Made by a program: the position numbers and the translations under genes. DNA of 64,000 nucleotides from Escherichia phage A221, in sequence record ON862890.1, one strand, 5' to 3'. Below are positions 9,227-43,199 of the stretch, piece after piece; the first letter of the stretch is position 1; the number at the start of each line of letters is the position of its first letter. Below the pieces are notes generated by a model that saw only the letters and a program-made list of their open reading frames with translations, had not been told where the DNA came from and ran no database searches.

Positions 9227-9373
9227 CAGGTCTTGGGAGGAGATCACAGTCATTCAATCCTCTTTAGGCGCTCTCTGGGTTGCTGACACATTCAGAACAA
9301 AGTCTCCCCCAGCTCCTCGAGTAGTTCACTTTCACTTTAAATACCTCTGCATTCATTGTGGAGGTATTTTCTT

Positions 9374-10168
9374 ATGGCCATTCTAAAACTTGGCAACCGT
9401 GGCACTGAAGTGAAGGCACTTCAGGATAGCCTCAACAAAATCGGCTTCACCCTCGTCGCTGATGGTGTCTTTGGCAAGGCAACAGAGAACGCCGTCAAGA
9501 CTGTTCAGGCGGGCGCGGGGCTTGTCATTGATGGTATCGTGGGTCCAAAGACCTCCTATGCTATTCGCAACGCCGGAGACGCCCATCAGGATCATCTAAC
9601 TGAGTCAGACCTGATTGATGCTGCTAACGATCTGGGTGTTGACCTTGCCTCTGTCAAGGCGGTGAATCAGGTTGAGTCGCGCGGCACGGGCTTCACCAAG
9701 TCAGGTAAGATCAAGACATTATTTGAGCGCCACATCATGTATAAGAAGCTGATGGCGAAGTTCGGACAGGCTCGGGCGAATGCCATGGGGCATATGTACC
9801 CGACGTTGGTCAACCCTTCTGCAGGCGGGTACACGGGCGGCGACGCGGAGTTGGATCGACTTCATGCGGCCATCAACATCGATGAGGATTGTGCGTACGA
9901 GAGCGCCTCTTACGGTCTCTTCCAGATCATGGGATTCAACTGCCAGGTCTGTGGATATGCCAACGCCAAGGAGATGTTCAACGACTTCCTGACAGGAGAA
10001 CGTGCTCATTTGATGGCATTCGTGAAGTTCATCAAGGCTGACGCCAAGCTCTGGCAGGCTCTGAAGGACAAGAACTGGGCTGAGTTTGCGCGGCGCTATA
10101 ATGGTCCGGCGTATGCCAAGAACCAGTACGACAAGAAGCTCACAGCAGCATACAAGAGTTTCAGTTAA
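9374..10168 (+). CDS. endolysin: N-terminal peptidoglycan-binding domain plus C-terminal N-acetylmuramidase-like (DUF3380) domain
   Basis: PG-binding-like repeat LQDSLNKIGF...DGVFGKATENAVKTVQ; C-terminal YGLFQIMGFN muramidase-family motif; RBS GGAGG. Confidence 0.7.
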   Translation: MAILKLGNRGTEVKALQDSLNKIGFTLVADGVFGKATENAVKTVQAGAGLVIDGIVGPKTSYAIRNAGDAHQDHLTESDLIDAANDLGVDLASVKAVNQVESRGTGFTKSGKIKTLFERHIMYKKLMAKFGQARANAMGHMYPTLVNPSAGGYTGGDAELDRLHAAINIDEDCAYESASYGLFQIMGFNCQVCGYANAKEMFNDFLTGERAHLMAFVKFIKADAKLWQALKDKNWAEFARRYNGPAYAKNQYDKKLTAAYKSFS

Positions 10169-13549: not shown

Positions 13550-14653
13550 ATGAGCGAACAGAAACAATTCTCCGTATTCGACCCAAGCTCGGACAACACT
13601 GGTCTACCGTTCTTCGGTGACCCAGTGAGCATTCAGCGTTACGATGTCGTGGCCTGGCCATTCGTACAGAAGTGGTATGAGAAAGGTCTCAGTCAGTTCT
13701 GGCGTCCTGAAGAGGTGGACATCACCAAGGACAAGGCAGACTTTGCTACCCTGAACGAAGCCGAGAAGCATGTCTACTTCAGCAACCTGAAGCGCCAGAC
13801 CATGCTGGACTCTATCCAGGGTGCGGCTCCGTTCGAGGCGTTTGGTCCATGGGCGTCTACCCCTGAAATGCAGTTTGCTGTCCTTGAATGGACGCGCCAG
13901 GAAGCCATTCACTCTTTATCGTACACCCACATTTTGCGCAACACTGTGAACGATCCAGGTATCGTGTTTGACCACGTACTGGATGTTGCAGAGATCGTGG
14001 ACTGTGCTCACCAGATCAGTGTGTACTACGATGACATGGTACAGTACAGTGGCATGCGTATGGCTGGACGCATCTTCACCCGAGAAGATCTGATGAATGC
14101 CAAACGCGCATTCTGGCGTGCTCTGTTTGCTGCCAACACACTGGAAGGCATCCGCTTCTACGTGTCCTTTGCATGCTCTTGGGCATTCACACAGTTTCAG
14201 AAGAAGATGGAAGGCAATGCCAAAATCATTCGACAGATCGCCCGTGATGAGCAGGATCACCTGATCCTGACCCAGACGCTGCTAAACCGCCTGCCTGGTA
14301 TGGACCCCGACTTTGCAATCATCCGTGAGGAACTGCGTGGTGAGATGACCCAGATGTTCCTGGACGTGGTCCATCAGGAGAAGGAGTGGGCGAACTACCT
14401 ATTCAAAGACGGTTCCATCCTGGGGCTGAACGCCAAGATCCTTCATCAGATGGTAGACTGGCTGGCAACCCACCGGATGGGCGCTATCGGGCATCCATAT
14501 CCCGGTGAACCTCGCAAGGAGAACCCAGTCCCATGGATTAATGACTGGCTAGATAATAAGGCAATGCAGTACGCGTTGCAGGAAGCGGAAGCTCCTGATT
14601 ATCTGATGGGTGTACTGACTGGTTCGGTATCCGATGGCCTCAAATTCGCTTAA
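13550..14653 (+). CDS. nrdB: ribonucleotide reductase class Ia small subunit
   Basis: 367 aa immediately downstream of nrdA; ferritin-like helical protein of expected size with C-terminal aromatic tail. Confidence 0.8.
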   Translation: MSEQKQFSVFDPSSDNTGLPFFGDPVSIQRYDVVAWPFVQKWYEKGLSQFWRPEEVDITKDKADFATLNEAEKHVYFSNLKRQTMLDSIQGAAPFEAFGPWASTPEMQFAVLEWTRQEAIHSLSYTHILRNTVNDPGIVFDHVLDVAEIVDCAHQISVYYDDMVQYSGMRMAGRIFTREDLMNAKRAFWRALFAANTLEGIRFYVSFACSWAFTQFQKKMEGNAKIIRQIARDEQDHLILTQTLLNRLPGMDPDFAIIREELRGEMTQMFLDVVHQEKEWANYLFKDGSILGLNAKILHQMVDWLATHRMGAIGHPYPGEPRKENPVPWINDWLDNKAMQYALQEAEAPDYLMGVLTGSVSDGLKFA

Positions 14654-14662
14654 AGGTGAGAA

Positions 14663-14887
14663 ATGATTACGATCTATTCCAAACAAGGTTGCGCTCAGTG
14701 TGTAACAGCCGAAAATCTGTGCAAAATGAAAGGGCTGGAACACAAGATCCTCAAGCTGGACAAAGATTACCGGCTGGAAGAACTTCAGCAGTTGACGGGT
14801 AAGCCGCGCGTGTCGATGCCTGTAATCGTCCTCGCTGACCAGACCGTGACCGACGTTAATGGACTCGCCGCCAGCATTAAACGCTGA
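14663..14887 (+). CDS. glutaredoxin/thioredoxin-like protein (NrdC/NrdH-like)
   Basis: CxxC active site KQGCAQCV near N-terminus; 74 aa; adjacent to nrdAB. Confidence 0.65.
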   Translation: MITIYSKQGCAQCVTAENLCKMKGLEHKILKLDKDYRLEELQQLTGKPRVSMPVIVLADQTVTDVNGLAASIKR

Positions 14888-14894
14888 CAAGCCA

Positions 14895-14920
14895 AAGCCC
14901 CTCATTGAGGGGCTTTACTT
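14895..14920 (+). terminator. rho-independent terminator
   Basis: Hairpin AAGCCCCTC-ATT-GAGGGGCTT followed by TACTTCTAT. Confidence 0.55.
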
Positions 14921-14992
14921 CTATAATCCCTGCGCTTATACTTCCCAGTAATTCATTGGCATTCGCCACAAATTGAAAGCGGGAACTATATC

Positions 14993-15454
14993 ATGACAAA
15001 CAAAGTACTCACCAACCCACTGCACAACTTCGGTTACATTCAACTCCCTCTGGTGATCGACACCCTGTACGCCGACGACAAAGAAGAGATCTGCTGGTCA
15101 CCCACCGCACTGATTGAACGCGAAATCTTCAAGTCTGTTGTTGATGTCATGTTCCGTATCGGTCGCAATGGACCTCTGGTCTACCTCGGCAAGGTGACTG
15201 AGTTGAAGACAAGCCACAACGAACGCTTCCTTCGTATCGATACAACGGGGTGCTCTCATCAGGACTTCAACACATTGCGCAATTATGTTCTGGTCAACCG
15301 CCCGGTCAGTCAACACCGCCCGTATCTGACTTCAATGCACATCGACAATTTCATCACCGACGTGCACCTCCGCGCCGAAACCCTCCATGAAGAGGAAACA
15401 GGCCGAGCTATCGACACAGTCTTAAATATGGTTGTGATCACCCTGGCGGAGTAG
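14993..15454 (+). CDS. hypothetical protein
   Basis: Start in GGGAACTATATCATG conserved context. Confidence 0.5.
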   Translation: MTNKVLTNPLHNFGYIQLPLVIDTLYADDKEEICWSPTALIEREIFKSVVDVMFRIGRNGPLVYLGKVTELKTSHNERFLRIDTTGCSHQDFNTLRNYVLVNRPVSQHRPYLTSMHIDNFITDVHLRAETLHEEETGRAIDTVLNMVVITLAE

Positions 15455-15459
15455 TCCTC

Positions 15460-15810
15460 ATGCAAGATTACAAAGAGTTGAGAATGCAGCTGGCAGTCCC
15501 CATACCAGACAAAGGTTTATACCAAAACCTGCATCATCTGATGTCTGAAGGGCATATGCTGCCTTTGCGGTCTGAGGATGGATCTCAGATCGGTTATGCC
15601 ACCAGTTGCGTAGTCTACGACAAACCAGGAGACGAAGAGCGCGGACAGGTCAGTGTGGGTTCCAGATTTGTGTTGAACAAGAAGCTGGAGGGATCAGTGG
15701 TTGACGTCAGGCCGATGATTATCCTCTACCAATTCAACGGTAAAGAGATGTTCAGGTTATTGAGCCACTTCATGTTAGTCGTGGCTCAGGCATTCAGGAC
15801 GAAATTCTAA
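15460..15810 (+). CDS. hypothetical protein
   Basis: 116-aa ORF with RBS GGAG; converges on gp25-like gene. Confidence 0.45.
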   Translation: MQDYKELRMQLAVPIPDKGLYQNLHHLMSEGHMLPLRSEDGSQIGYATSCVVYDKPGDEERGQVSVGSRFVLNKKLEGSVVDVRPMIILYQFNGKEMFRLLSHFMLVVAQAFRTKF

Positions 15811-16187
15811 TTCGTCCTTTTCAACCACACGGTGTCTGTTATTGGATCTGGATTGTTGACCACATAGAATGTGATGGTCACGCCCAGAGAATGGTAATCC
15901 TCTGACAGACTCACCGTGACTTCTTCTACCTCTGCTCTGGGTTCATACAGGGCGATGGCGTCCTCTACTTTGTTCTTCACATCTACCTGGATAGTCGGTG
16001 TCGTGTTTTCACCCAGCAGCCCATAAAGCCCCGCGCCGATCCCAGGATAAGTGGGCCAGTCCCCGACTGAAGACATGACGATATTCCGCACGGATTGTAA
16101 GACAGCATACACACCTGATTTCATGGTGACATCTTTGGTCACTGGATGCATGCCGAACTTCAGATCGACATCTTTATACTCTTTCAT
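15807..16187 (-). CDS. 25: baseplate wedge protein, gp25/GPW lysozyme-like family
   Basis: 126 aa; motif ALYEPRAEV and C-terminal NNPDPI similar to T4 gp25 RNYEPRIDK ... DNPDDI; RBS GAGAGG. Confidence 0.65.
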   Translation of the reverse strand: MKEYKDVDLKFGMHPVTKDVTMKSGVYAVLQSVRNIVMSSVGDWPTYPGIGAGLYGLLGENTTPTIQVDVKNKVEDAIALYEPRAEVEEVTVSLSEDYHSLGVTITFYVVNNPDPITDTVWLKRTN

Positions 16188-16260
16188 TTCGCGATCCTCT
16201 CAGGATGCCTATAAGGAGCAGAGAGACGTGCTGCCCCTCTGCCACTAAACTTATACCAAC

Positions 16261-17871
16261 TTACTCTTTGGTGCCGAAATTACCACCATTGTCTTTTAAT
16301 TCTGCCTTGATGTCAATCTCACCCGGACCCGTAGGGGATGCAGGGGTTGCACCTGACAGAGAAGAAGCGCGACCAGCACCTTCGGCATATATGATGTTAC
16401 CATTGATCGTCTGAGCGACAGTCAGTTTGTCAGCGATTATCTCAGTCGTTAGAATCTTAGGAACCTTCAATGTCCCGCCGACCTCCAGAGTCTCGCAGAT
16501 AATGCGTAGAATATTCTGCGCTTGCATTTCCGCTAGGTCACTGAATTTCATCAGCGCTGTGCCCGCAACCACGTTGGAGTAATTGTTGGAATGCAAATGA
16601 TAGACCTCACCTGTCTTGCGCTGAACTTCAGTTCCTTTGACCGTCAGGTTGTGGTCCCCGCCGACATAATAACGCTTGTTGAACATCGTCAGGTCATAGT
16701 GGTCTTTGACGGACTTGTTGACCACATCACCATCCGGCAACATTTGCTTGTAAGACCCAGACTTATGCATCCAATGAAGACGTTCACCACCAGGGGTGTC
16801 ATCCACTTCCATAATATGCCCAGCTCGGGACACCATGACGTTATTGTACGGGTATTTAGAGCCACCCGCAGCCGGAACCATGGTTTCTCCAGTGTTGTCA
16901 ATATCCTGTACTCGTCCAGTAGGAGCCGGAGTCGGTTGTTCCTTTGGAGTACGATCTGGGATAGGTTCTGACCATTTACCATTCTGCTGCGCAGGCACGG
17001 CTGTGGCTGTGTTAGCAGGACCAGGCCAACGATATCCCAAGACCGAAGAACGTCTGAAACGACTAACCTTCACTGAATCGGATTGGTTGCCACCAATACA
17101 CCAGACATAGTTTGCATCGAACTTCTGCACAAACGCTACGTGTCCAAATGTAGGGTTGTTACCACGCCGGAAGACTACGATAGCGCCATATTGTGGTGCT
17201 GACAGTGGAGTGCCCCATGTAAGGTAAGATCGGGCAAGAGCGGAGCGTGTAGACGTGTATCCAGCCTGTATCATAACCCAACCCACGAACGCCGCACACC
17301 ACGACACTTCATCTTCAGAAGCACCAAGGGAGGTTGTCTTGTGATATTCTATAATGCGCGGGTTGTTGTTGAACTTTCCGGCATACTCCTTGATACCTAA
17401 TTCGCCACGAGCGATTGTCATCCACTTCTCTGGATCATACCCGCCAACAGGTGGTTGTGGATCTGGTTGTGGTTCGTCTTCTTGTTTCACAGGAACGTCA
17501 GTGACAGCGTTGTACGCCTGACGTTCTACAGATTGAACGACCTGCCCGAGAGCCAGTGGGTTTGTGTCGGCACCATCAGTAGGACTTGAACCAGTCCAAG
17601 TCCAGGTGATGCGTAAATTCTGGTATGCTTCGTCAAGGGCGAACCCCATAACCTCAGTGCCAGGAATGATACCCGTTGGAGACCAACCTAAACCAGCAGA
17701 GGAGGCATTTGAAGCAGGCATCAGTACCTTCGCCCATGGGAGTTTGTCTGTAGGCAGGAGGACGGGATCGTCGGTGTGTACGCCATATATGCGAACAGCA
17801 ACTCGCCCGTTTTGGTCTGGATCGTTGACATCTTCAACGGTGCCGTAAAACCATCTCATATTGTCTAACAT
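16261..17871 (-). CDS. 5: baseplate central spike (gp5-like) with embedded CHAP/NlpC-P60-like cysteine peptidase domain
   Basis: N-terminal gp5 OB-fold pattern WFYGTVEDVNDP...VRIYGVHTDD; mid-region Cys/His pair SWCAAFVGWV / GHVAFV; C-terminal beta-helix-like needle. Confidence 0.7.
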   Translation of the reverse strand: MLDNMRWFYGTVEDVNDPDQNGRVAVRIYGVHTDDPVLLPTDKLPWAKVLMPASNASSAGLGWSPTGIIPGTEVMGFALDEAYQNLRITWTWTGSSPTDGADTNPLALGQVVQSVERQAYNAVTDVPVKQEDEPQPDPQPPVGGYDPEKWMTIARGELGIKEYAGKFNNNPRIIEYHKTTSLGASEDEVSWCAAFVGWVMIQAGYTSTRSALARSYLTWGTPLSAPQYGAIVVFRRGNNPTFGHVAFVQKFDANYVWCIGGNQSDSVKVSRFRRSSVLGYRWPGPANTATAVPAQQNGKWSEPIPDRTPKEQPTPAPTGRVQDIDNTGETMVPAAGGSKYPYNNVMVSRAGHIMEVDDTPGGERLHWMHKSGSYKQMLPDGDVVNKSVKDHYDLTMFNKRYYVGGDHNLTVKGTEVQRKTGEVYHLHSNNYSNVVAGTALMKFSDLAEMQAQNILRIICETLEVGGTLKVPKILTTEIIADKLTVAQTINGNIIYAEGAGRASSLSGATPASPTGPGEIDIKAELKDNGGNFGTKE

Positions 17872-17905
17872 ATTGAATTCCGGTTGTCAAACAAGGATTT
17901 GAAGG

Positions 17906-17913
17906 TATTTATG
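17906..17913 (-). promoter_or_regulatory. late-promoter-like box CATAAATA (7/8 match)
   Basis: Reverse strand reads CATAAATA about 35 nt upstream of gp5-like start. Confidence 0.2.
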
Positions 17914-18211
17914 CGCAGCTGATTTTGCCTTATATACTATAGGAAGCTCTGCTTCCGTTCATTTTATTTGTTTTATTCGATCCTATTCGCTTCGCTCATC
18001 AAACCGCCCTATGCGGGCAGCACCATTCCAATGCCATGGAGGCATAAGGGCGAGTCAATAACTGTACACCCCAGAACACTCCTTGAAAAATGGTATTTTA
18101 CTGACAATCTGATTCAAAACAGACAAACACCAACAAATGACTCGGGAACAAGCCCATTATAGCAATTTCAGGTAAAGAGAGTGCGTGTTAACCGATTTTA
18201 CAGTTAAGCCA

Positions 18212-18236
18212 ATAAAAATCCCGCCGAAGCGGGATT
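18212..18236 (-). terminator. rho-independent terminator (minus strand)
   Basis: Hairpin AATCCCGC-(CGAA)-GCGGGATT followed on minus strand by TTTTATT. Confidence 0.55.
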
Positions 18237-18383
18237 ACTGTTTCTTAGACAACCTGACCTTGAGGGCTTCGGTTAACAAGTCAAGATGCCATGGCATCGA
18301 CTCGTTGATTTCAAATATGCTATAGCCGTGTAACTTCAATTCATCACACATCACGAAGTAGGATAATAAATCAGTTTCAAACA

Positions 18384-19190
18384 TTAAATGAAAATTTCAT
18401 TAATACTATTGAATTCGATTTTGTGCTCCTTACCACATTTCGGACACTTGATCGAACTCTTGTAGTGGATGCGCGGTATTTTGTGGAAGAAGTTCTTCGT
18501 AATGCTGTCAATAACATCTGATTCGATGTTATCCTTCACCCATTCAACAAACGCTTCTTTCACACGGCGGCGCTCAGTAGCCTCTTCCGGAGTGATTCCG
18601 ATTTCTTCAGGATTCTCAACCTTCCACACCTGACCGTCATCATCGTACAGACAGTCGATAAAGGTGGCCAGCATCATCTCAACGCTTGCAGCATCAGACA
18701 GTGCCGTAGCGTCCGAGAAGGAAGGTTGGCGCATCTTGAGGTGATATCCACCTGGCAGGTCAAACGTCTCCCGGAAGCCGTCCTGAGCAATGCATTTGAC
18801 GTTGTTCAACGGGATAGGTAGAGTCAGTTCCTGCTCACAGGGAACCATCTGGTGCTTTTCTTGACCATCTCCCAGATCGATCATTTCTTCAATCTGATTA
18901 TTGCACTTATAACGAATCTTCATCAATTCACCGATGGAGATCATGCGCATGCGGATGAACACTTCCTCAACAACGCCGATTGGCAGTTTACTGAAAGGTG
19001 CGCCTGCATTTACACACTCGCTAAAGAGACTCTCCATCATGGCCGCGCGTTCTTCAATCGGCGTTTGCGGATCTGACACCTGAAGTAATAAAGTTTGTTG
19101 CCCCGCAGTAAAGGCGCGATATTTGATCACAGTAGGCCAAAAGTCGCTTTTATATGTCTTTTCTGTTCTGGGCAATGATGGTAAATTCAT
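18384..19190 (-). CDS. hypothetical protein with C-terminal zinc ribbon (possible baseplate-hub-associated)
   Basis: C-terminal CPKCGKEH motif; ATG at 19190 with RBS GGAG; tool start 19304 is upstream in-frame. Confidence 0.45.
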   Translation of the reverse strand: MNLPSLPRTEKTYKSDFWPTVIKYRAFTAGQQTLLLQVSDPQTPIEERAAMMESLFSECVNAGAPFSKLPIGVVEEVFIRMRMISIGELMKIRYKCNNQIEEMIDLGDGQEKHQMVPCEQELTLPIPLNNVKCIAQDGFRETFDLPGGYHLKMRQPSFSDATALSDAASVEMMLATFIDCLYDDDGQVWKVENPEEIGITPEEATERRRVKEAFVEWVKDNIESDVIDSITKNFFHKIPRIHYKSSIKCPKCGKEHKIEFNSINEIFI

Positions 19191-19233
19191 AATGTATCTC
19201 CACGGTATATTGTAAGAGTAATTATAACGAGGA

Positions 19234-19764
19234 ATGAAAATGCGCGGATTTTGTTTTAGTGAAATAGGCAAAGAACTGTCTATACAATATCCCGATCCCA
19301 ACACAGACTTCTTTATCTTCCTGACCGATTATGCCAAGAAAGAGAATATCCTCCATGTGGCAATGAAACACGAAGATTATAAGTTCTGCCGGCTGGGTGT
19401 CAAAGACCTGCTGCGTTATGGTCTACAAGTGGTCATCGTAGACCCATACTACAGCCCTATCGACGATGAAGAAGTTCTGCCCGTATATGTTCACCGCAAC
19501 ATCAATACATTGGAAAAGCATTATCCAGATTGTATTGTCATCGGCGAACTCATCTCGTATTATCATCGTGTGCGAAAGCTGGAACAGATTAAAAGTTATT
19601 TTCAAGAGGGTGTTGGTCAATATAAGATGAATGCCCTTAGTAGTGGATGGATGGTGCTGTCTTCAGCAGGCAGTGCTGACTATATTAAGATGCGTGTCTA
19701 CCAATACGTTGTGGAGCGCGATTATGAACTGGAGAAAAGTAATGCAAAACGAAAAACCCGTTGA
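19234..19764 (+). CDS. hypothetical protein
   Basis: 176-aa ORF divergent from 18384-19190; RBS GAGGAA. Confidence 0.45.
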   Translation: MKMRGFCFSEIGKELSIQYPDPNTDFFIFLTDYAKKENILHVAMKHEDYKFCRLGVKDLLRYGLQVVIVDPYYSPIDDEEVLPVYVHRNINTLEKHYPDCIVIGELISYYHRVRKLEQIKSYFQEGVGQYKMNALSSGWMVLSSAGSADYIKMRVYQYVVERDYELEKSNAKRKTR

Positions 19765-20233
19765 ACGTGCTCCGATTGAGGAAGTACAACAACACGTCCT
19801 GGACCTTATGAAACACACAGTTTCTGATGCCGAAGGTAAAGTGCCGGATGAGTTCATCGGTGCGTTCGATCAGGTGGCTTTCGATACCGAGGGAGTTCCT
19901 TTGATCCAGACGATCGCTGGTATGGTTTTGTTTGAACCGAAAGCAGTAGAAAATGGCGTAATCGTCTACTCAGCCAACATTGGTGTGGACGGTGAGTCCC
20001 TGTCTCTCGAAGTTAGCAACATTGCTAAGTACCTGATCAAGTGTGGTTATGATCTGCAGGTTGTGACAGCCCACTATATCGATCCTCAGGGGCAGATCTC
20101 CTACGGTGATGAAGCGCGCAAAGTGAAACGCCACATCGACACTACCGTGATCCTGCAGAGTATCCAACAGATGCAGAAGAACCTGGACCACCCTGGTCTG
20201 ATCCTGCCTGACAGCAAAATCATCACTCGTTAA
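19741..20233 (+). CDS. hypothetical protein
   Basis: ATG overlapping upstream gene end; 164 aa. Confidence 0.45.
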
Positions 20234-23019: not shown

Positions 23020-23046
23020 TCAACAAGCCATCTTCGGATGGCTTTT
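23017..23046. terminator. bidirectional terminator between convergent genes
   Basis: Hairpin AAGCCATC-TTCG-GATGGCTT followed by TTTTATTTT. Confidence 0.6.
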
Positions 23047-23990
23047 TATTTTCCCAACACGTCTTGCAATATTCCCAACAGGCTTGTCTTCTCCGCCGCC
23101 GTCAGGTTATCGTTACCCATGATGTCACGAGAGATACCTACCGAGATGCGCTCGAAGTCCTGTATGCTTATCCCAGCCAGGTTGTTTACAAGTTGGTCAA
23201 GCTGTTTGTAAGCCAGGAGAGCCTCTCCTGTGAAGTTCCCTTCTTTCACCTTGCGATAAAGCTGTCCAGCTTTTGAGGCCGCAGTTTCCCAGTCACCACT
23301 GGTAAGAGCGTCAGCAATGCCGAGAGGAAGAAAATCGCTGGAAAGGCTGCGTGTTTCATATTCTGTCTCCGAAAGCACTTTGTTGTAAGAGAAAGAAATG
23401 TTGTACTGGTTGAACTGGTCTGTGGCACCTTTATCCAGCTCAATAGAACTGAAATTTATTGGGTGAGCCTCGACGATGTAGACGCGGTGGACCACTTGAT
23501 CTTCGGTGTCAAGCTGTTCAATGCATATGTCAGTCACGAAGTCTTCGTAATATCCCATTTTGGTGGTGTGTGGATCAAAGATCAGACTCTTCCACTTGTC
23601 CATCACAGACTTCTCATAATAGTCATTGGCTAATAAGAATGACAAGTCGAGGTCGACGTTGGACTTGTTGTTCGGCATCTTGATGTGATTACCGTTGTTT
23701 GTCATTGGAGTGGTGTCGATACCAACTCCTGGCAATGAGGCAACCATACACATCATCTGAAGGGAACGGGACGTCTGGTTTGTCCCTCCAAAGAAAGCGT
23801 TTACAATACGGGCTGACTGCTTAAACAAGTCACCGAAAGATGAATTGGTTCTATACGCCTTTCCGTCATTAGCCAGAGTGGCATTGGAGTCAAAGATCCC
23901 TGGTGGTAGAGGGATGGTCACTCTGAAGCGGTTCTTGCGCGACAAGCCCCGCTGTAATATCTGTGTGATAAAATTGCGATAGTCTTCCAC
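23046..23990 (-). CDS. hypothetical late protein (314 aa), possibly structural
   Basis: GTG start with RBS GGAG; perfect late promoter TATAAATA 35 nt upstream on minus strand. Confidence 0.5.
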   Translation of the reverse strand: MEDYRNFITQILQRGLSRKNRFRVTIPLPPGIFDSNATLANDGKAYRTNSSFGDLFKQSARIVNAFFGGTNQTSRSLQMMCMVASLPGVGIDTTPMTNNGNHIKMPNNKSNVDLDLSFLLANDYYEKSVMDKWKSLIFDPHTTKMGYYEDFVTDICIEQLDTEDQVVHRVYIVEAHPINFSSIELDKGATDQFNQYNISFSYNKVLSETEYETRSLSSDFLPLGIADALTSGDWETAASKAGQLYRKVKEGNFTGEALLAYKQLDQLVNNLAGISIQDFERISVGISRDIMGNDNLTAAEKTSLLGILQDVLGK

Positions 23991-24024: not shown

Positions 24025-24032
24025 TATTTATA
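24025..24032 (-). promoter_or_regulatory. T4-type late promoter box TATAAATA (minus strand)
   Basis: Plus-strand TATTTATA = TATAAATA on minus strand, upstream of 23990 start. Confidence 0.45.
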
Positions 24033-41810: not shown

Positions 41811-43199
41811 TTAAACCTTCTGTGCTTGGCCTTTCTCAATCGCCTGAGGAGTAGTGGTGGAAGCAGTTGTCTGATTGGTCTGAGGTGGAAGCACCTGCTC
41901 CAGCAAACTGTCCTTGGCAATCTCAGCGATGCACTGATAATCTTTGGTCAGGCGGGAAATCTTGTGACGCACTTTGGTCACGATATAGTGGCCTGTAGAT
42001 AGCTTACTTAACTCTGCCAGGTTTTCGTTCTTCTTAGGACGGTTGGACTGGTCTTCGACGTAGAACACCTGACCGACGTTCAGGCGGTTATCACCAACGA
42101 GCAACACGCGCATCACAGTGCTGGCAAGACTGAAGTTGATAACACGACGAGCATAATCAATCTGCTCCGCTCCATCCGGCTGGGCTTCAATGTAACGGAC
42201 GTTCTGACGATTGAATTCATCTGAGAACATTGGGAACGGATCAAGGTGAGCCGTCTCTGCAAACCACTCAGTATAGATGCGCTGTGTTGGGGTAACTGTC
42301 TTGGTCTCAAAGTCGTAGACGCGCTCGTTCACCGCCAGGACATCGCGGTAGTTTGCCATGAACTGGTCACGCGCCAGCTTCTTCTCTGCCTTGATGATCG
42401 TGCGCATAAAGCGCTCAGAGTTGAAGTTGTTATCCTGCATGAGCGGCGCGTCCTGAGGATCACGGAACAACTTGTTCTGCTGAGCTAGTTCCTGCTTCTC
42501 TTCTGCTGTCAATGACTGGCTGCCCTGGTTGAACAACGTCGTCAGGCTCTTGAAGTGATAGCCATTGAAGTCTTCATAGAACACGAATGGCATGAACAAT
42601 TCGTCATAAGAACGGCTCGCCATATAATCAATAGATCGCAGCACGGGCCAGAGCGGGGTGGCGAACCGCTCTTGAATTCCATATGAAGGGTCGATGTCTT
42701 CGAACTTGGTGCGCGACTCCAGCTGATTGAAGATTGTCTTCGCCATGTCAGAATACGAACCGTCAAGACCGAGGGAGCATCGGATCATGCTGTCCTTATA
42801 GGCATCGGTGGTCACCATGTGCAACCAGAATGCTTTCTTGGACGAGCTGTTGGACTCATCAGCTACACGCCCAACACGCGCTACGCGCAGGGAGAGAGTG
42901 GTGTATTCCGAGGCCGCCGGACTCTTGAATGACACCACAACTTCTTCACCACCCAAGATAGGCATTGTGTCAAGAATGTCCCACCCCTCTTTTATCAAGA
43001 CATTGGCTGTAAGTGATGGAGATGACTTCCCTTCAAGACCCAGATCCTGGAAGACGTTGAACTCCTCAAACAACGCCGTCAGGTCATATGGTGTTGGTGA
43101 TCCACCCTGGGGTGTATGAGGGAGTATCGCCATATACTTCAGGTCAAATGTTGTTGACGGTGTTACAATACCGTCTTGGGTCTCTCTGTTTTCGATCAT
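41811..43199 (-). CDS. putative baseplate hub subunit (gp27-like)
   Basis: 462 aa, translationally coupled (ATGA overlap) within tail module; assignment by synteny and size. Confidence 0.4.
   Translation of the reverse strand: MIENRETQDGIVTPSTTFDLKYMAILPHTPQGGSPTPYDLTALFEEFNVFQDLGLEGKSSPSLTANVLIKEGWDILDTMPILGGEEVVVSFKSPAASEYTTLSLRVARVGRVADESNSSSKKAFWLHMVTTDAYKDSMIRCSLGLDGSYSDMAKTIFNQLESRTKFEDIDPSYGIQERFATPLWPVLRSIDYMASRSYDELFMPFVFYEDFNGYHFKSLTTLFNQGSQSLTAEEKQELAQQNKLFRDPQDAPLMQDNNFNSERFMRTIIKAEKKLARDQFMANYRDVLAVNERVYDFETKTVTPTQRIYTEWFAETAHLDPFPMFSDEFNRQNVRYIEAQPDGAEQIDYARRVINFSLASTVMRVLLVGDNRLNVGQVFYVEDQSNRPKKNENLAELSKLSTGHYIVTKVRHKISRLTKDYQCIAEIAKDSLLEQVLPPQTNQTTASTTTPQAIEKGQAQKV

Follow-up and report, generated by a model that had tools for sequence, protein, structure and literature searches.

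A predicted cysteine peptidase in place of the lysozyme domain in the central spike of an Agtrevirus-type phage

Introduction

The central spike of phage T4, gp5, is a trimer at the tip of the tail tube; when the sheath contracts, it is pushed through the outer membrane, and it then digests the peptidoglycan locally. Its OB-fold domain is the part that docks onto gp27, and the polypeptide cleaves itself at Ser351/Ala352. The enzymatic insert of T4 gp5 (PDB 1k28, 1pdl, 5iv5) is a lysozyme of the GH24 family, whereas the gp5-like protein described here, which resembles it in the OB domain, in the start of the C-terminal domain and in its surroundings of baseplate hub and wedge genes, has an insert of the cysteine peptidase type and a distal stretch of 104 aa that is absent from T4 gp5.

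The exchange of peptidase for lysozyme in such a spike is no new concept, as it has been known at the annotation level since 2011. Kutter et al. (2011; Virol J 8:430; PMC3184105) devoted a section, 'Baseplate Lysozyme', to gp5 of CBA120 (orf092, AEM91805.1), a homologue of 537 aa in which lysozyme is lacking, aa 150-282 form a CHAP/TIGR02594 domain and T4-like flanking regions lie at aa 3-109 and 334-437; the same paper records the detection of the ViI orthologue in particle proteomics. Hooton et al. (2011; Virol J 8:498) tabulated the 'tail-associated lysozyme' of PhiSH19 as 'Gp5 OB family & CHAP domain (CL0125)', Sajous1 proteomics returned a 'tail associated lysozyme' with 20 spectra, and some GenBank records of orthologues read 'CHAP domain protein' or 'cell wall-associated hydrolase'. 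The protein analysed here is the Agtrevirus orthologue of these proteins, with no substantive difference from gp5 of CBA120 or PhiSH19; the two papers, however, give sequence annotation, without a fold model, catalytic residues or activity, and a search of the open-access literature turned up no work on the enzymology or structure of this Ackermannviridae spike protein or a close homologue.

Structures of phage phi812 (9eum, 9euf) and of the diffocin hub-hydrolase CD1368 (8v3w) show that other contractile systems, too, have peptidases in their hub or spike complex; for the hub protein gp15 of Anabaena phage A-1(L), the published work includes a lytic assay on host cells. In these three the peptidase lies within the hub (gp27-like) protein or at its C-terminus and is unrelated in sequence to the one described here, which belongs to an enterobacterial phage and is inserted into a T4-type gp5, with the OB fold on one side and the spike on the other; phi812 and diffocin, moreover, attack Gram-positive hosts. 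Tae3 and other type VI secretion (T6SS) effectors of the TIGR02594 or NlpC/P60 type, in turn, are free cargo on a spike and have immunity partners, whereas the present peptidase is fused inside the spike polypeptide and no immunity-like gene was identified in the sequence analysed.

Results

Domain architecture of the spike protein

The sequence analysed is a 64-kb stretch of Escherichia phage A221 DNA (hereafter the window), to which all nucleotide positions refer. The spike gene and the parts of its product are:

16261..17871, minus strand: gp5-like central spike gene, a single ORF with ATG start, 536 aa plus stop codon
17596..17859, minus strand: N-terminal OB-fold domain (aa 5-92), from Pfam Gp5_OB, phmmer to T4 gp5 and the model
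17437..17595, minus strand: linker 1 (aa 93-145), Pro/Gln/Asp-rich, predicted to be disordered from its composition and from pLDDT <50 over aa 93-143
17023..17436, minus strand: TIGR02594/CHAP papain-like cysteine peptidase domain (aa 146-283), from Pfam, NCBIfam and the model
16864..17022, minus strand: linker 2 (aa 284-336), Pro/Thr/Ala-rich with a conserved W-S/D-E-P motif, pLDDT <50
16576..16863, minus strand: proximal C-terminal domain (aa 337-432), homologous to T4 gp5C by phmmer
16264..16575, minus strand: distal C-terminal region (aa 433-536), Ackermannviridae-specific by tblastn, presumed spike tip

The phage is of the Agtrevirus type (Ackermannviridae, ViI-like), with 99-100% identity to AV101, ZQ1, PC3 and YX22. 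Its spike protein is identical (100%) to the deposited proteins of Escherichia phages ZQ1, PC3, PH4 and YX22, and is 85% identical to CBA120 gp5 over 535 aa without a gap, within a shared gp26-gp5-gp25 synteny. The 6-kb region around the gene shows 98-99% identity with Escherichia phages YX22, RPN242, PC3, PH4 and AV101 and with Enterobacter phage fGh-Ecl02 (Ackermannviridae, Aglimvirinae), and 92-93% with Shigella phage Ag3. Phages ZQ1 and LHE287 (98.6-98.7% identical) align to just 96% of window positions 14000-20000, in two pieces, and therefore differ from the window by an indel of about 250 bp in this interval.

The protein has a three-part architecture in which all domain matches lie far above chance level. 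A preliminary description, made from the sequence, had recognised a gp5 OB fold at the N-terminus from the motifs WFYGTVEDVNDP (aa 7-18) and VRIYGVHTDD (aa 26-35), and this is confirmed by Pfam Gp5_OB over aa 39-96 (E 1.9e-12; 48.1 bits, cut-off 25) and by phmmer, in which T4 gp5 1k28 covers aa 3-93; in the AlphaFold model of the full-length monomer the domain is formed of beta strands with a pLDDT of about 80. Against the PDB, phmmer aligns T4 gp5 (1k28, 1pdl; E ~3e-30) in two segments only, aa 3-93 with T4 residues 6-101 and aa 338-432 with T4 residues 385-477 (second domain E ~3e-13). The T4 lysozyme segment (T4 residues ~102-384) has no counterpart in this alignment, and no lysozyme family occurs among the Pfam matches to the spike protein at E<=1. 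Pfam, NCBIfam and the T4 gp5 alignment thus bear out the central claim of that description, that a cysteine peptidase has replaced the lysozyme domain in a gp5-like spike.

Its further claim, that the C-terminus forms a beta-helical needle, is supported by sequence homology for the proximal half only: aa ~338-432 correspond to the start of T4 gp5C, but aa 433-536 are specific to the family and have no T4 gp5 match in phmmer. By tblastn these distal 104 aa occur in 282 phage records, all of the Ackermannviridae type, and additionally in Vibrio phage Bakedbeans at 35% identity. In the monomer model, which is good for the OB fold and the peptidase, short beta strands appear at aa 343-403 and the pLDDT is <50 over the C-terminal 200 aa; a scan of hydrophobic periodicity over aa 337-505 gave top periods that varied by segment, with no prominent period of eight residues as in T4. 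Near the C-terminal end a GGNF motif is conserved (alignment A1). The gp5 orthologues of Serratia phage 3M, Erwinia phage phiEa2809 and relatives (A1 rows P0014-P0020, P0022 and P0023) are longer, at 605-617 aa: they continue for an extra ~70-80 aa beyond the GGNF motif that ends the window protein, and close with a conserved ...G(S/Q)KP...S(D/N)G..WE.. segment. This extension is possibly an additional domain, a tip or knob.

The peptidase domain and its predicted catalytic residues

The middle domain is matched by Pfam CHAP (PF05257) over aa 187-262 (E 5.9e-11; 43.1 bits, cut-off 26) and by NCBIfam TIGR02594 over aa 150-282 (E 8.7e-38; 129.6 bits, cut-off 70.55), and its predicted model folds as an NlpC/P60/CHAP domain with a Cys-His pair, not as a lysozyme. 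Canonical NlpC/P60 (PF00877) is absent among the Pfam matches at E<=1. Of the CHAP/NlpC-P60 assignment proposed at the outset, the CHAP part holds, with CHAP and TIGR02594 both above their thresholds, but the kinship to canonical NlpC/P60 is one of fold or clan only; likewise, the enzymatic module is present, but spans aa ~146-283 and not 180-330 as first thought. The residues with a predicted catalytic role are encoded at:

17296..17298, minus strand: codon of Cys192, predicted nucleophile (codon checked)
17140..17142, minus strand: codon of His244, predicted general base (codon checked)
17083..17088, minus strand: codons of Asn262-Gln263 in the GGNQ motif, candidate for the third polar residue of the triad from conservation and the model

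Cys192 and His244 are the Cys/His pair that had been pointed out in the motifs SWCAAFVGWV (aa 190-199) and GHVAFV (aa 243-248). In the 40 sequences of alignment A2, with identity down to ~25-40%, the invariant residues are W191, C192, F195, G243, H244, G260, G261, N262 and Q263; C192, H244 and the four residues from G260 to Q263 are also invariant in the domain-only alignment A3, and H244 is the sole column invariant in all 36 rows of the mixed alignment A1. In the model, Cys192 opens a helix (192-202) and His244 opens a beta strand, as expected of a papain-like alpha+beta fold with Cys at a helix N-terminus and His on a strand; the GGNQ motif follows the strand 255-261, and the Pfam CHAP match stops at aa 262, the last position of the profile. 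The spacing from His to Asn/Gln is 18-19 residues, which resembles CHAP enzymes, canonical NlpC/P60 having ~12.

Compared with the PDB, the A3 profile finds its best sequence match in the T6SS effector Tae3 (4hz9; E 0.0028); Cys192 falls on Cys23 and His244 on His81, the published catalytic dyad of that enzyme (PMC11796386). By phmmer, the peptidase domain alone gives only a marginal match to the hub CHAP domain of phi812 (E 0.18), the GHVAFV motif of which aligns with His244. The PDB matches of the A2 profile were rejected, as they were to the GH108 domain that adjoins TIGR02594 in bacterial homologues and not to the peptidase; A3 is the domain-only alignment rebuilt after this.

Linkers and modularity

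The two linkers delimit the peptidase on both sides, and the KWSEPIP motif of linker 2 aligns in A1 with the WDEP/WKEP of gp5-like proteins that have no enzyme. Gp90 of Vibrio phage Bakedbeans (L011:1720-2697), an orthologue of 325 aa, shares the OB domain, the C-terminal region and the synteny of the window protein, but has next to nothing between the OB domain and the C-terminal region: it matches window aa 6-110 (38%) and aa 338-530 (37%), while aa 111-337, comprising both linkers and the peptidase, are missing. The order at its locus is gp26, a small ORF, gp5 and gp25, with one additional small ORF between the last two. A spike can thus work without the enzyme in at least some hosts.

The converse arrangement exists as well. 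Gp124 of Sinorhizobium phage phiM9 (290 aa) and the metagenomic JGI proteins P0024, P0025 and P0028 (315-333 aa) combine Gp5_OB with CHAP as the window spike does, but are too short for a C-terminal spike; P0024 (319 aa) is encoded directly upstream of a gp25 gene. A different domain order is found in P0027, in which Gp5_OB is combined with NlpC/P60 (PF00877) and the peptidase comes after the gp5C-like segment (A1). With Bakedbeans lacking the cassette and other phages carrying OB and CHAP without a spike, the peptidase has the character of a swappable module, and the sequences suggest a cassette whose point of insertion, after the OB fold and before the spike, is constant. This evidence of modularity, from the Vibrio orthologue without the cassette and the OB-CHAP proteins without the spike, is what is novel in the present analysis.

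The TIGR02594 domain itself occurs in 543 phage records, among spikes, endolysins and tail proteins, and in bacterial proteins, where it is fused to PG_binding_1, to LysM or to GH108 and PG_binding_3 and has 44-57% identity to the spike domain. In a neighbour-joining tree of the peptidase domain, the Ackermannviridae sequences fall with a bacterial LysM/PG-binding protein (82% bootstrap), apart from the other OB-CHAP phage fusions, the deeper nodes being unsupported; this suggests, at the level of sequence, that the Ackermannviridae acquired their peptidase independently. One phage protein that bears the gp5 name, gp207 of Vibrio phage ICP1 (L003:2752-3468), has PG_binding_1 and CHAP, the architecture of an endolysin; its name thus looks like an annotation transferred through the shared peptidase domain.

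Gene neighbourhood

The spike gene lies among genes for baseplate hub and wedge proteins, in agreement with the annotation of AV101, and the window also encodes a separate candidate for cell lysis:

15807..16187, minus strand: gp25-like baseplate wedge gene, immediately downstream of gp5 (Pfam GPW_gp25, E 3.1e-8)
18235-18384, minus strand: 49-aa ORF between gp26 and the terminator (phrog_9633, E 2.9e-39)
18384..19304, minus strand: gp26-like baseplate hub gene, upstream of gp5 (Pfam T4_baseplate, E 1.6e-46; AV101 annotation)
41811-43199, minus strand: 462-aa phrog_350 'tail protein', positional candidate for the gp27 partner, adjoining the tape-measure-like, gp53 and gp48 genes
9356-10168, plus strand: 270-aa likely endolysin with PG_binding_1 and N-acetylmuramidase domains (PF11860, E 7e-59)

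The order gp5-gp25 recurs in CBA120, Det7, Serratia phage 2050H1 and a JGI contig, and AV101 places the start of the gp26-like gene at window position 19190. The 49-aa ORF also matches phrog_634, 'baseplate hub assembly catalyst', though weakly (E 4.4e-4); this family may correspond to T4 gp51. In contrast to T4, homologues of gp27 and gp5.4 are not recognisable by sequence within the 64-kb window, and the phrog_350 protein considered for the role of gp27 has no Pfam or PDB sequence match. AV101 names the orthologue of the endolysin only a 'putative peptidoglycan binding protein'. A scan of the window found no tRNA genes.

A conserved non-coding region upstream of the spike gene

Upstream of the spike gene, the following features were observed or are needed for comparison:

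17872-18234, minus strand: 363-nt non-coding stretch between the 49-aa gp51-like ORF and gp5
23046-23990: gp54-like tail-tube/baseplate gene, with a copy of the late-promoter core ~35 nt upstream of its start

The 363-nt stretch is conserved at ~70-94% identity over Agtrevirus, Limestonevirus, Kuttervirus and Taipeivirus and is partly kept in Miltonvirus; blastn retrieves it from 269 records, with Kuttervirus at 71-74% identity. In comparisons of 5-7 sequences it holds an intrinsic terminator with compensatory changes, a conserved extended -10-like box, TGnTATAA(T/C), and a near-invariant block (TTATGCCTCCATGGCATTGGAA...), the hairpins of which keep their pairing through double substitutions; the 216 nt around this block have a folding z-score of -2.93. 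An Rfam scan of the window gave no match at the gathering score of any family, and within the 363-nt stretch returned just terminator-like fragments. A structured leader or a small RNA is a possible reading of the region, a lead that comes from only 5-7 sequences.

The T4 late-promoter core, ATAAATA/TATAAATA, occurs in 2-4 copies in the 64-kb window, without enrichment over shuffles. Two of the four copies lie ~35 nt upstream of starts, those of gp5 (17906-17912, minus strand) and of the gp54-like gene (24025-24032, minus strand). The element upstream of the gp5 ATG, CATAAATA, is conserved at this distance: it is invariant in five of six aligned enterobacterial Ackermannviridae and seemingly shifted in the sixth, CRW-SP2.

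Discussion

From the architecture, the fold of the middle domain, its conserved residues and the baseplate synteny, we regard the protein, with a probability of roughly 85%, as the central spike with which an Ackermannviridae (Agtrevirus-type) myovirus punctures the cell: a T4 gp5 orthologue in which a TIGR02594/CHAP papain-like cysteine peptidase cassette, not a GH24 lysozyme, lies between the OB domain and the spike.

The expectation that this enzyme cleaves peptide cross-links and not glycan strands is well supported by sequence and model as far as a peptide or amide bond is the predicted target; cleavage of cross-links specifically is one of three options, the enzyme being a putative DL-endopeptidase, a cross-link DD-endopeptidase or an amidase. 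The fold neighbours of the domain are mostly gamma-D-Glu-mDAP DL-endopeptidases, together with the DD-endopeptidase MepS, and its closest sequence match of known structure, Tae3, is a cross-link DD-endopeptidase. The bond most likely to be cleaved is gamma-D-Glu-mDAP or mDAP-D-Ala.

A more specific form of the peptidase reading, possible but doubtful, is that the spike domain is a Tae3-like DD-endopeptidase on mDAP-D-Ala cross-links, a covalently fused counterpart of the TIGR02594 effectors associated with VgrG in the T6SS, which an ancestor of the Ackermannviridae may have gained from a cell-wall hydrolase of bacterial or prophage origin, in an event separate from the phiM9-like OB-CHAP fusions. 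Were this true, the linker-enzyme-linker cassette would be a mobile accessory specific to the host envelope, kept in the enterobacterial members and missing in the Vibrio member. An example with proven activity would be rare for a Gram-negative phage; a review of 2017 names phi6 gp5 as the only demonstrated endopeptidase among the virion lysins of Gram-negative phages.

Among the alternatives, it is unlikely, though still worth weighing, that the domain is an N-acetylmuramoyl-L-alanine amidase, stripping whole stem peptides off the glycan and leaving peptides and cross-links uncut: CHAP domains comprise amidases as well as endopeptidases, effectors of the Tae family are often just termed 'amidases', and Pfam places the domain in CHAP and not in NlpC/P60 PF00877.

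Considerably less probable is a role chiefly in the final stage of infection, or as a weapon of 'lysis from without' or superinfection, in place of tube penetration. TIGR02594 domains do occur in endolysins such as the PG_binding_1-CHAP protein gp207 of ICP1 and in T6SS toxins, and Kutter et al. (2011; PMC3184105) did not find a free lysin in CBA120; but the window encodes a canonical endolysin with PG_binding_1 and N-acetylmuramidase domains (9356-10168), and the peptidase, in the position of the T4 gp5 lysozyme, is flanked by the OB and spike domains of a baseplate protein that has been reported from virions. That the domain has no catalytic activity and serves structurally or for peptidoglycan binding, a mere spacer in the spike, can hardly be credited, for although Bakedbeans gp90 shows that a related spike functions without the peptidase, C192, H244, N262 and Q263 are invariant in Ackermannviridae, in further phage fusions and in homologues from bacteria, down to ~25-40% identity, the pattern expected for an active site under selection.

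For the spike peptidase as an entry enzyme, analogy with T4 gp5 would give the following course. The spike would trimerise and sit at the tip of the tail tube; contraction of the sheath would drive it through the outer membrane; and the three peptidase domains would open the peptidoglycan locally, allowing the tube to reach the inner membrane. The predicted reaction is hydrolysis of an amide bond, in the stem peptide or in the cross-link, with Cys192 as nucleophile and His244 as base, and lysis at the end of the cycle would be left to the separate muramidase endolysin encoded at 9356-10168.

Present in about 280 sequenced phages, the spike peptidase is widespread, and for enzybiotic work it is a candidate peptidoglycan hydrolase with activity against Gram-negative bacteria. 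The enzymatic cassette of T4-type spikes appears to be interchangeable, with a lysozyme in T4, a cysteine peptidase in ViI-like phages and none in some relatives; the Ackermannviridae are therefore predicted to attack the peptide part of the wall on entry and, through the muramidase endolysin, the glycan part on exit.
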